Origin: Hormiphora californensis
Taxonomy: Eukaryota > Animalia > Ctenophora
Direction of reading: 5' to 3'
Assembly: GCA_020137815.1 (NCBI GenBank)
Contig: CM035353.1
Span: forward strand, 1,860,001 to 1,924,000
Length of the DNA stretch: 64,000 bases
Numbering within the stretch: the first letter of the stretch is position 1; every line of letters starts with the position of its first letter. Positions 1,154 through 55,300 of this stretch are shown here, one piece after another. The notes beneath the pieces are model-generated. The model saw nothing but the letters and a program-made list of their open reading frames with translations, made no database searches and had not been told where the DNA came from. The position numbers and the translations under genes are program-made.

Positions 1154-1900
1154 GTAAGTTCTGTGTGTAGCAGGAACCGACCGAACCAAGTAAACAACCA
1201 ATCAGAGCTCGCTATTTAGGTCACGTGACTGGTTATCAGCCAATCAGGGACCAGTATTTCCTGATTCGGTCGGTTCCTGGTGTGTAGTTGATGTAATGGG
1301 TGGGTGGGGATCAAATTGGGATGTGGGTCGTAAATTGCCACGGTCAAGAGACACGGGCATCTCTTGATTTGTTGCTTTACTTAAACTTCAATTTCACTAA
1401 ATTAACGATACTTTTTAAAAAGAGAGAGAGAGATAGTTGGGTTCAGTTATCTGTGGAATGTGGCTCATACATGTCTTTATAGGACAACCCTGTAGAGATT
1501 GGATTGGGCATTAATGTCTATAAATAATAGACAGAGAGAGAGGGATGGTCAGTTATCTGATTGGTCCATGGACAGACGTTATAATATTATCCAATCGTTA
1601 TAAAGGCGTGGTTAATGTTTAGTTAGTTGGGAAAGGGAGAGAGGAAGATTAGAGAGACTATTATTATAATTATTATGAGAGGATGCATGTATCCCACGTG
1701 TCGAATCTTCTCAATCTCTCCCAGCATGGCATATATATTGCTTATAATGCTATATTGTTGAGCTCTATTTTTTGCCTAATGTTCCAGCCAATCAGAAGTT
1801 TTTTCTAGCCATCTGGAGGACCAATAGGAAAACTGCTGCTATAATTCAGCTGCAATAAAAAGAACCCATCAGCGAACACGGCGAATCACAACGTTAACAT

Positions 1901-2726
1901 ATGTTTCCCTTGCTTCTTATCTTTTGGCTAGCCACCCTTGCTCACTCTGGTAGGTTAATTTAGTTAACTTTGATTCCGGTGCTCAAACCCCCGAAAACCC
2001 CCATGATCACCCCTTGAAACACAATCTTCGTATGTCGTTAATTTTCTAATATTGATATGCATGCAGATTGGGTGGACCCTCCATTAGAAAAAGATATCCC
2101 CTGGGATCTAGAGAGCAATGTTCTGCACCTCAAAACACCCTCCCGGACAAATTATGAAGGAACTGTCATCGGATCGGATGCAAATTCTGAGGTTTTCGAG
2201 ATTCGGATCTCTGTAAAATTAGACGAAACACATGTTAAAACGTCGGTTGGAGTTCACACAAAAGTGTGTCAATTTCAAGATAATGTGCAAGAGATTAAAC
2301 CTAACCAACTAGAATCGAAACTAGAATATTCGGTTTGGACACTCGCCAAAACAGAAGATGAGATGACTGTTTCAAGAGACGGTGAAATAATATTCTCGTC
2401 AAACTTGAATGTTGAATGTCCAGGGTAACTATTATTAATTTGTGTAATTAAAATTAATTTAATTCAAAACTAAAGAAACTTTTTAAACTAAACAAGTTGG
2501 GGGTTTCTTATTATGTTTGTGGTGTCTCTGAATTATGCGATTTAAAAAAACGAGAGTAATATTAGGTGTTCACGGTTACGAGCTATTTACAAGTAATTAG
2601 GTAATTAATTTCAGGCTAGCTGGAGACATTGTGGAGTCCATAAGATTCACCACAGAGGTAACGAATCAGGGGAGTGAAATATTTGAATACTTTGACAAGG
2701 AACCCTACCTGTACCCAGGTATGTGA
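1901..2726 (+). CDS. Secreted uncharacterised protein; exons 1901-1949, 2067-2424, 2615-2718/2726
   Basis: The 49-nt signal-peptide exon (MFPLLLIFWLATLAHS) and phase-compatible GT-AG introns give DWVDPPLEKDIPWDLESNVLHLKT...WTLAKT...GDIVESIRF. The domain is similar to the one at 27308-27739. Confidence 0.7.
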
Positions 2727-52300: not shown

Positions 52301-55300
52301 CATATTTTACATTACACTGTAGGCGTAGCATTAATCTCGTTTTTAAGTTAGTTTCTCGTCTTGAATTAACAGCGGTAGGGGAGGGGGCGTCCAGAAAAAC
52401 AATGGGCTTGAGACGGGATGGGATTTCTATTGGCGAAATGTCGTCCAACTCCGTCTAGTATTACTAGTTATATTGCTAGGTTACTACCGCCTGGGCCAAA
52501 AGTAGTAGTAACCTAGCAAACCTCAACTAACCCACCACCCATTAATTGAGATGTGTCCCACCTGCACACACTAACCTGCGTATATGGTCTTTGTATGAAG
52601 TCCCCTGGTAGTTGCAACTCTGATCAAGTTCCGGGTGGCCCAGTACACATTCCCAGCCACATTGTCCACCGTGATGGCCCAGACAGCCGTCTCAGCCTTG
52701 AGAACGGTCATAGACAGTCCATCCAGGGAGAGGGATACCAAGCCCAGGGCACTATCCCGGTACAGAACCCGCTCTGAAGAATATTAGTTTAGGTACTATA
52801 ACAGCTTGATTGTTAAACCCTTTTTGTCTTTAAAACGATTTGAGAGAGTCGAGTAAGGCATATATTTAGGTGCCGGCAGGCACCTCCGACCCGAAGAAAA
52901 CAGCAAAAAACGAAAAAAAGAAAAAAAAATTTTGCCCCTGCACAAAAACCCAAAAATGCCGGCCCTATTAAGAACAAAGAAAGGTCTTTTTTTTGGGGGG
53001 GGGGGGGGGGGGGGGGGCAAAAAACATGTCAACGATTGTGGCCACACCGTTTGAGATATCGACTTGAAATTTTGTAGGCATGTTCTTGTAGTATTCCTTT
53101 GTGTCATGACGTTGGCGGATTTTTGAATTTTTAATTAATTAATTAATTATAGGTAATTAAAAACGGTGCAAGGGCACCGTGCCCCTGCACATTGCGTGTT
53201 TTGTCCCTTGCACCGCGCCCTTGCACCAAATTCTATTTTCCGTTCTGCTTAAAATATCGACTTGAAACTTTGTAGGAATGTTCTTCAATCATAAAAGATG
53301 ATGTTCGAAAAGTGGGAATAGTCAAAATTAATTAATTAGTTAGTTAGAGCCGTGCAAAAAATGGAATTTGGTGCAAGGGCAGGCAATGTGCAAGGGCAAA
53401 TGGTGCAAGGGCAGCCCTTGCACCAATTTTATGATCGAACTGTGTCCACACCGTTTAATATTTTGACACGAAACTTTCTATGCATGTTCTAGTAGCATAA
53501 CTACGAGTACTAGAAGAGCCGTATGATTAATATATCAATTAGGTAATTAATTATAGGCAAATTAATTAAAATTTGCCCCTGCACAATTTGTGCAAATTTC
53601 CCCTGAACATGTGCCCTTGCACCATTTTGTTTGCCCATGCACTAAATTATATTTTCCGTTCTGCTTAAAATATCGACTTGAAACTTTCTAGGAATGTTCT
53701 TCATGCATAAAACATATACAGTCGGACCCCGATTTAGGGCCCCCCGATTTAGTGGCACCCCGATTTAGGGACAGGATTTTTTTCCCCTGATATAGGAAAT
53801 TAACCTTATTTGACCCCGATTTAGTGGACACCCCGATTTAGTGGACAAGAGCCTTTCCCCCGAGGGTGTCCCTAAATCGGGGTCCAACTGTAATATAATC
53901 TACAGAAAGTGGGAATAGTCAAAATTAATTAATTAATTACTTAGAGATTAATTTTGGGGTGGCCCCTGCACAATTTTGGCAAATTTGATATTCAAACTTT
54001 GAGCCTTTGTGAAAGTAATGAAAATTATTTATTTCAGGTTATGATGAACAATAAGCTATAAAAACGCCCCTTTTTGTTACACAAGCCTGTGCTTGGTATC
54101 GAAGACACCTCACACTCTGTCGCCGGGCGACCTTCGCGTGCACACGCTGGCAAGGGGTAACTTCGTAACCAAAGCCTGTGCATTGTGCATAATGAAATGG
54201 ATAAATTTTCATCCAGGCGATAGAACTCGATAGAGTTCGATTGATTTACCATGACAACGGAGTTGGTTACCATACTAACCAGAGAATTCGTTGTAAAATA
54301 GTCCTTTCTTGCTATAAACTCGGCCTTTAGATAGAAAATTGATTTTATTCTACTCGCACTAATGCAAGGGCATTTCACAGTTTGGTGCCGTTATTTTTGT
54401 CTCTATTTTTAATAGGATTTTGGGATTAGACTGAAAGTATGGGATCATTTGAGAAGTAGTGAAGATTTGAAAATGTTAGCAACTTGCCGGTTCGACAAAC
54501 TAAACCCATATGATTCCAACTTCGGGTCGGACGAGGGGAAGCTTGCCTTTTGCGAACATATAATTTCTCTTTCCTAAACAAGCATCTCTCTTTTGAGTTG
54601 TTCATACTTTCTTTTTATTCTAAAAATCATGGAGCACAGAAACAGTGTCAAGCGACTAAATCTCTCTTACCATTAGTAGCATCATAAGCAATAGCAATTG
54701 AGTTCCTGATGTGGTAAACAACCAATCAGAACTCGTTATTTAGGTCACGTGACTGGTTATCAGCCAATCAGGGACCAGTATTTCCTGACACTTACCATTA
54801 GTAGCATCATAAGCAATAGCAATTGAGTTCCTTATGTGGTGCATGTTGATGGTGAACACTTTAGGTGCCGGGGTATCCAGAGTCACCCTGTATATCACAC
54901 TACTGCCCGCCACCAGGAGACTCTTGGCTGAGGCCTTACAGGTCTTGTTGTCCGCTTGGAGCATGAACAAGTCAGGGCAGGTACAACTTGATCCCTCTTC
55001 ACCCAGTATGCAGGTGTGAGAACACCCACCGTTGTTGGATTCACATGGGTCGGGCTCTAGGGGGGGGGGGGGTGTTAGTTTCAGATGGGTCCGGGCTCTA
55101 GGGGGGGGGGGGAGGGTGTTAGTTTCACATGGGTCGGGCTCTAGGGGGGATGTTAGTTTCACATGGGTCGGGCTCTATAGTCGGGACGAATCTCTCACAA
55201 AAAGAAGTGGTTGACTCACTATTTGGTGAAAAGCAAATTCCGGTTGTAACCCACCTATTTTGACCCGCTGAACACGATCCCGTCCATAGGTAAGCTCGCA

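Follow-up and report, generated by a model that had tools for sequence, protein, structure and literature searches.

Miniature inverted-repeat transposable elements (MITEs) of the hAT superfamily are short and non-coding, have terminal inverted repeats (TIRs) that start with CAG and create an 8-bp target-site duplication (TSD). For the hobo/Hermes-type target (hobo: GTNCGNAC), the available text of PMC3276498 describes T at position 2 and a preference for GT at the start. All of this is shared by a 109-bp element that occurs repeatedly in a stretch of 64,000 nucleotides from the ctenophore Hormiphora californensis (GCA_020137815.1, contig CM035353.1, positions 1,860,001 to 1,924,000). This 64-kb stretch is here called the window, and positions are counted from its first letter. 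The element differs from the hAT MITEs in being known without a linked transposase and in its placement: its 8-nt target equals the first eight nucleotides of an intron (+1..+8) in 7 of 14 copies, and no such clustering at exon edges or splice donors was found described for hAT MITEs in the open-access literature.

Thirteen copies of the element, which has 18-bp TIRs, were recovered by blastn at the places where a first, sequence-only reading of the window had put them. A scan with the first nine TIR bases raised the tally to 14 by adding a remnant at 61721-61729, the sole perfect match to this 9-mer in the window beyond the recognised copies. Six full-length copies differ at 2-6 of 109 nt. 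An 8-bp TSD is present in all nine copies that keep both ends (two match at 7 of 8 positions and one has 2 additional nt). The copies are listed below with the strand of the element.

Copy 1, 1171..1279, plus strand: full length; TSD 1163-1170/1280-1287; target at +10 of the probable, unconfirmed donor 1154, or directly 3' of the stop codon 1168-1170.
Copy 2, 4994..5089, plus strand: one end shorter by 13 nt; lies mid-intron, at +76 of donor 5164 in a minus-strand gene.
Copy 3, 8519..8619, plus strand: TSD 8620-8627, intron +1..+8 of donor 8627 (minus); second TSD copy 8511-8518, 7 of 8 matching.
Copy 4, 13445..13555, plus strand: TSD 13556-13563, intron +1..+8 of donor 13563 (minus); second TSD copy 13437-13444.
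Copy 5, 15354..15441, plus strand: truncated, without clear TSD; +61 from donor 15501.
Copy 6, 24293..24401, minus strand: TSD 24402-24409/24285-24292 (7 of 8); target from +8 of donor 24416.
Copy 7, 29714..31610, plus strand: TSD 31611-31618, intron +1..+8 of donor 31618 (minus); second TSD copy 29706-29713; interrupted by a 1.78-kb TIR insertion, 29791-31569.
Copy 8, 34182..34290, plus strand: TSD 34174-34181/34291-34298; mid-intron, +220; target donor-like on the antisense strand.
Copy 9, 37038..37141, plus strand: distal TIR minus 5 nt; TSD 37030-37037, intron +1..+8 of donor 37030 in a DD3-3-like gene; second TSD copy 37142-37149.
Copy 10, 41534..41642, plus strand: TSD 41526-41533/41643-41650; target from +12 of donor 41515.
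Copy 11, 50472..50580, minus strand: TSD 50464-50471/50581-50588; target from +13 of donor 50452; inserted inside a member of a third small repeat family.
Copy 12, 51873..51981, plus strand: TSD 51865-51872, intron +1..+8; second TSD copy 51984-51991, preceded by an extra AG, a 10-bp duplication including the last two exon bases.
Copy 13, 54714..54787, plus strand: both ends shortened; 54788-54795 equals intron +1..+8 of donor 54795 (minus); in place of the distal side, a ~46-bp exon-end duplicate carrying a second donor.
Copy 14, 61721..61729, minus strand: 9-nt TIR remnant cut by another element, beginning at intron +9; 61730-61737 equals intron +1..+8 of donor 61737.

Besides the seven exact hits, four targets start at +8, +10, +12 and +13, so that 11 of the 14 start within +13; the other three start at +61, +76 and +220. 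None of the 14 copies lies less than 50 nt from an acceptor. The orientation of the element is unbiased (5 forward and 8 reverse among 13 scorable copies). The five TSDs that the sequence-only reading had equated with the first eight intron nucleotides hold (three on the minus strand, at 8620-8627, 13556-13563 and 31611-31618; two on the plus strand, at 37030-37037 and 51865-51872). The truncated copy at 54787, said to fit the same spacing, does so at 54788-54795: a loss of 16 nt between two CAGGAA repeats places its target at +1..+8. As copies 13 and 14 retain only the donor-side 8 nt, a true duplication is visible in five of the seven exact copies. The four copies that had been placed near a donor have their targets at +10, +8, +12 and +13; for the first of them (copy 1) the donor is only probable.

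The clustering at intron starts is real, and short introns alone do not account for it. As candidate sites, every position of the pre-insertion host introns was taken, from -1 to 25 nt before the intron end, with or without repeat masking (paired values below: all positions / masked); the masked null leaves copy 14 only 10 candidate sites and is over-conservative. Uniform placement within introns predicts 0.08 / 0.21 exact hits compared to the 7 observed (P 2e-13 / 5e-11), and 1.3 / 2.9 targets starting at or before +15 compared to 11 of 14. The sequence-only reading would have had to be abandoned if the distances to donors had resembled background once intron length was controlled; in the window, the excess survives this control.

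The same pattern could arise without any positional bias from an extended palindromic donor-like motif, provided that introns are short and exon hits are selected out. The median intron measures 269 nt raw and 135 nt after repeat masking, the flanks of copies outside the window are donor-like (see below), and target motifs of TIR families reach up to 3 bp past the TSD in the available text of PMC3276498. However, when a symmetric conditional-logit sequence model with four features (G at 1 and at -1, T at 2, A at 3) is fitted on the 14 sites themselves, no more than 1.6 / 2.9 exact hits are expected (P(>=7) 6e-6 / 0.003), although the true motif may be richer. This model also cannot account for the copies at +8, +10, +12 and +13, of which two have no GT. 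The explanation by a motif without positional bias is considered quite unlikely. When a window over the first 15 nt is added to the sequence model, 4.4 / 4.8 exact hits are predicted (P 0.09 / 0.14), and the window term contributes beyond sequence and donor (p 1e-4 / 0.004). Sequence preference and intron length are thus insufficient, whereas sequence combined with a short 5' window fits.

A sequence preference is nevertheless part of the fitted model. The odds ratios for G1 and T2 are ~4-6. Among the 7 non-donor copies, 4 have a target that begins with GT on one of the strands, and the same holds for two of the metagenome contigs that carry the element (L122 and L123). Outside the window, organisms A and B have thousands of contigs that align to the element. 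From its ends, 11 loose-end consensus strings were obtained (32-296 contigs each). Each string is a plurality line from related runs, agreement is ~0.4, and real donors cannot be separated from a donor-like motif on this basis. T occupies target position 2 in 11/11 strings, G occupies position 1 in 7/11 (organism A: 6/7) and position -1 in 5/11. The GT-first preference proposed in the sequence-only reading is borne out by these strings and by the odds ratios. The flank consensuses are frequently GTA and at times AG/GT, varying between runs: the X3 consensus (80 contigs) reads AAG/GTAAATAG, while X15 (296 contigs) shows no G.

With moderate confidence, the clustering is attributed to a transposase that inserts mostly just 3' of exons and prefers targets starting with GT. 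The element would then be a cut-and-paste insertion concentrated just 3' of exons, and its cue would be the edge of the exon chromatin and not the spliceosome. This edge may consist of the linker DNA beside an exon nucleosome, or coding DNA may attract the transposase while hits in exons are purged. Insertions would snap to +1 because the donor GT is the one GT that is always present in the short window. The intronic portion of the U1 pairing site falls within +1..+8; the duplication leaves these positions beside the exon, and normal splicing would be expected to continue. Selection would purge the mirror-image hits, those that fall within exons or beside acceptors. For Hermes, a hAT element, insertion in nucleosome-free DNA is reported (title cited in PMC7337890). 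The GC content drops from 0.48 at exon ends to 0.38 at intron starts.

Placement after stop codons points in the same direction. In another ctenophore, the element is present in two spliced-leader mRNA contigs, 10 nt (L122) and 5 nt (L125) 3' of the stop codon; this is the case in 2/2 full-CDS mRNA matches and at a position where no donor exists. The cue may therefore be the end of coding DNA instead of the spliceosome. From the 5 metagenome matches, L121 and L124 are uninformative on position and L123 yields a TSD only; in L124:455-720, copies of the element core are rearranged and partly repeated. The element-bearing metagenome contigs start with the AATTTGAG leader motif, which is described for ctenophores in the available text of PMC8527503.

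Several results weigh against this explanation. It is built on n = 14 in a single window, and the +15 cut-off is post hoc. The 5' bias is not shared by every kind of insertion, as a second MITE family in this DNA is much looser, with only 1/6 copies within +15 (Fisher p 0.018 compared to the 109-bp element; one nested copy was dropped before this count) and 4/6 within about +30. In organism B, G occupies target position 1 in 1/4 consensus strings. The hit donors read TG/GT in 5/7 cases compared to 15/87 for the window (post hoc p 0.002); this TG equals the element's own terminal TG, and its excess is left unexplained by insertion at exon edges. Finally, a donor-specific term retains an odds ratio of ~4 beyond sequence and window, with borderline p values (0.049 / 0.084).

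This last result would be expected if the transposase were guided to 5' splice sites, by tethering to the U1 snRNP or to paused polymerase, as an evolved targeting strategy. The 7/14 exact hits, the lack of copies within 50 nt of an acceptor and the X3 consensus, which resembles a textbook donor (AAG/GTAAAT), agree with such guidance. It is hard to reconcile with the element lying just after stop codons in both full-CDS mRNA matches, with the four copies at +8..+13 and the three deep in introns, and with the unbiased orientation. Copies 8 and 11 occupy antisense donor-like sites, as a symmetric DNA preference predicts. Guidance to splice sites is therefore regarded as unlikely. Selection alone was also considered: insertion may be even along introns, with the 109-nt hairpin disturbing the splicing of short introns except right after the donor, so that survivors accumulate at the 5' end. 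The element is indeed predicted to fold into a strong hairpin (z -5.5), and mammalian transposable elements (TEs) that lie 20 bp or less from an exon are found preferentially on its donor side according to the available text of PMC3088655. The same source, however, describes them as depleted near exons overall, the opposite of the present excess. The copies at +61, +76 and +220 and the second-family hairpins at ~+100 and ~+170 are tolerated, which makes such a filter rather improbable.

In total, 87 donors were annotated by hand in the LRP-like gene, the nested DD3-3-like gene and small genes; 4549 in this list is wrong (not GT) and 21004 is uncertain, and neither hosts a copy of the element. 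The two main host genes are as follows.

4308..62927, minus strand: large LRP-like gene with YWTD, EGF, kringle, F5/8-like and FN2 exons, hosting 9 copies.
36430..52226, plus strand: DD3-3-like gene nested in one intron of the LRP-like gene, hosting 4 copies.

The donors 37030, 41515, 50452 and 51865 agree with the exon ends of the DD3-3 orthologue P0001; the match at 37030 requires one 1-nt indel in the next exon, read as an assembly error or allele. Donor 51865 is also supported by a putative-RNA contig of a diverged relative (X22) that continues into the next exon. Donors 8627 and 13563 agree with the 97-98% identical gene models P0393 and P0394 of a close relative, which are predictions and not RNA; the exon before donor 13563, earlier called weaker, is real by this match. 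More generally, the EukProt 'sb/' models, which we take to be Pleurobrachia models, match window exons at 97-98%. By its sequence matches, the window is nuclear DNA of a ctenophore, probably a member of the Pleurobrachiidae. For donors 24416, 31618, 54795 and 61737, the support is the reading-frame continuity of the YWTD repeats, and Pfam matches back the exons of 24416 and 54795; Pfam gave no match for 6 of the 11 exons searched. About 60 introns were seen in the LRP-like gene, along with several apparent 1-nt frameshifts, and no close orthologue of this gene was present among 150 representative-protein matches.

Two S1 contigs and one S2 contig carry copy 3. In organism B, one contig (X15 record 7) matches the exon of copy 3 as far as intron +6, after which come 87 letters that lack the element; the donor and intron of copy 3 therefore predate the insertion. 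For copies 11-13, no empty-site joint was found among the 15 of 404 joints listed, and none was listed for copy 3 either. The element translation occurs in 377 database proteins, mostly 'sb/' models among the best 120. In these best 120 of 377 matches (64 distinct right flanks), Leu after Tyr/His, as expected from an antisense AG/GT, was found in 5/14 compared to 8/50, a non-significant difference (p 0.14).

The element is short and non-coding (longest reading frame 36 aa), and combines TIRs, a fixed TSD and the lack of a transposase ORF with many similar dispersed copies, as is typical of MITEs. Its 8-bp TSD and its nTnnnnAn / GTnnnnAC target preference are those of hAT elements, and it likely belongs to this superfamily. 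The TSD length and the GT..AC target are not diagnostic of hAT compared to P, and P-superfamily elements have CA..TG termini, as in the 109-bp element. According to the available text of PMC3276498, P elements likewise use an 8-bp GT..AC target (P element TSD: GTCCGGAC), with a motif reaching past the TSD. The present target core is AT-rich (consensus GTATATAG), whereas a GC-rich core is expected for the P superfamily. An autonomous partner with the same TIRs was found neither in the window nor in the 5/5 metagenome matches. A 1.4-kb element at 44297-45700, with long inverted arms, TTAA flanks (piggyBac-like) and a terminus with ACCGACCGAA, shares this string with the TIR; it was rejected as partner because its TSD differs. 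The 24-nt core of the element had 0 matches in viral and prokaryote genomes and 5 in metagenomes, and 120 matches of a 14-nt TIR scan to viral contigs were taken as chance. In all copies, the core (1219-1229 in copy 1) holds a GTCACGTGAC palindrome flanked by two CCAAT-like boxes, resembling promoter motifs.

Every intron-placed copy sits in an intron that is bounded by host exons and continues to its own acceptor (the placement of copy 1 is unconfirmed), and the 109-bp element is not an introner. Copies forming whole introns, for which the sequence-only reading had suggested a search, amount to 0/14. Its phrase "one step from introner" applies to the element sequence in one orientation, and not to the making of new introns. 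In reverse orientation, the far end has a branch-point-like CTGAT ~32 nt upstream and a U-rich tract, followed by CCTG where CAG is needed, so that one T-to-A change would give an acceptor; an element with this change in an exonic GT target would be precisely removable. The consensus end CCTG has no terminal AG, copy 12 ends in GAG, and only copy 3 has CAG: in transcript sense, it forms a 109-nt GT..AG unit that is directly followed by GTGAGT. Base 8520 of copy 3 is unconfirmed, as no listed contig spans the left junction. Five exact copies keep the far end intact, and as the T-to-A change occurs in one of them, it could be due to chance or an assembly error. In its strongest form, the proposal is that of a DNA transposon family that uses 5' splice sites as a safe harbour via a splicing-linked cue, duplicates the donor with each hit and stands one T-to-A change from an introner, with copy 3 as a transposon-made recursive splice site; this appears doubtful.

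The second, duplicate donor reads CTG/GT, and TSD and element together measure 117 nt. From the frames in the sequence, inclusion of these 117 nt avoids stop codons only if the element is in forward orientation and the intron is of phase 1, and the downstream donor is predicted to be mostly inert or to give premature stops. One database gene model (P0226, a prediction) includes the element in frame. SOS splicing was set aside as a needed factor, since intronic Tc1 copies are not excised according to the available text of PMC12779559.

The second MITE family has a TA duplication, internal 15-17-bp repeats and a mild bias to intron 5' ends (10244-10400, 20810-20983, 25416-25481, 27120-27292, 31962-32062, 43003-43177, 53717-53892). 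The third small repeat family has no TIRs and also lies in introns (45886-45957, 50456-50653, 15270-15341, 49808-49870). Many tandem repeats contain either an exon end together with its donor or an exon start together with its acceptor, and so form arrays of spare splice sites at 36508-36734, 60227-60390, 62469-62706, 34478-34560, 43374-43921, 62101-62424, 60988-61638 and 54668-54840. A DD3-3 exon and its acceptor are duplicated as well (50898-50995, 51378-51480), the upstream copy lacking an obvious in-frame donor.

The genes at 35033-52575 are doubly nested: the LRP-like gene holds the DD3-3-like gene in a 17.5-kb intron, and a DD3-3 intron in turn contains a gene for an ionotropic glutamate receptor (~46770-49280, minus strand, one apparent frameshift near 47280). 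The best match of this receptor ORF is 4zdm, presumably a ctenophore structure. Further genes nested in LRP-like introns, read by eye, are a single-exon MFS-like transporter (21669-23423), a short ORF with dibasic sites that resembles a secreted precursor (16270-17300) and a small secreted protein (26970-28030). Gene nesting is already described in ctenophores in the available text of PMC8527503. At 3481-4170 lie three putative tRNA-like copies in alternating orientation.

Known cases of targeted integration involve promoters and tRNA genes. In the open-access literature, neither the 109-bp element itself nor any DNA transposon with insertions concentrated in the first intron bases was found described. 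If the pattern holds genome-wide, the steering of insertion by exon edges, target sequence and selection could be studied on a very large natural dataset, and the element would offer a plausible pre-introner state in an animal. The element also pollutes ctenophore gene models.

The comparison with mammalian intronic TEs (Zhang, Romanish and Mager, available text of PMC3088655) reveals one common trait: near exons, insertions are better tolerated on the donor side than on the acceptor side. That study left out DNA transposons and found the mammalian elements to be depleted near exons, whereas the 109-bp element is strongly enriched in the first 13 nt. The introners of Gozashti et al. form the second comparison. 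Their detection pipelines deliberately exclude elements inside existing introns, and ctenophores are not mentioned in the main text of PMC9860276 and PMC12130899, although the supplements may list ctenophore genomes. Introners favour predicted linkers (main text of PMC9860276). As described in the available text of both papers, they share with the present element the MITE-like structure, the GT donor supplied by the target and a probable linker or genic bias. Introners, however, create new introns in exons, whereas the present element lies inside existing introns and ends in TG instead of AG.

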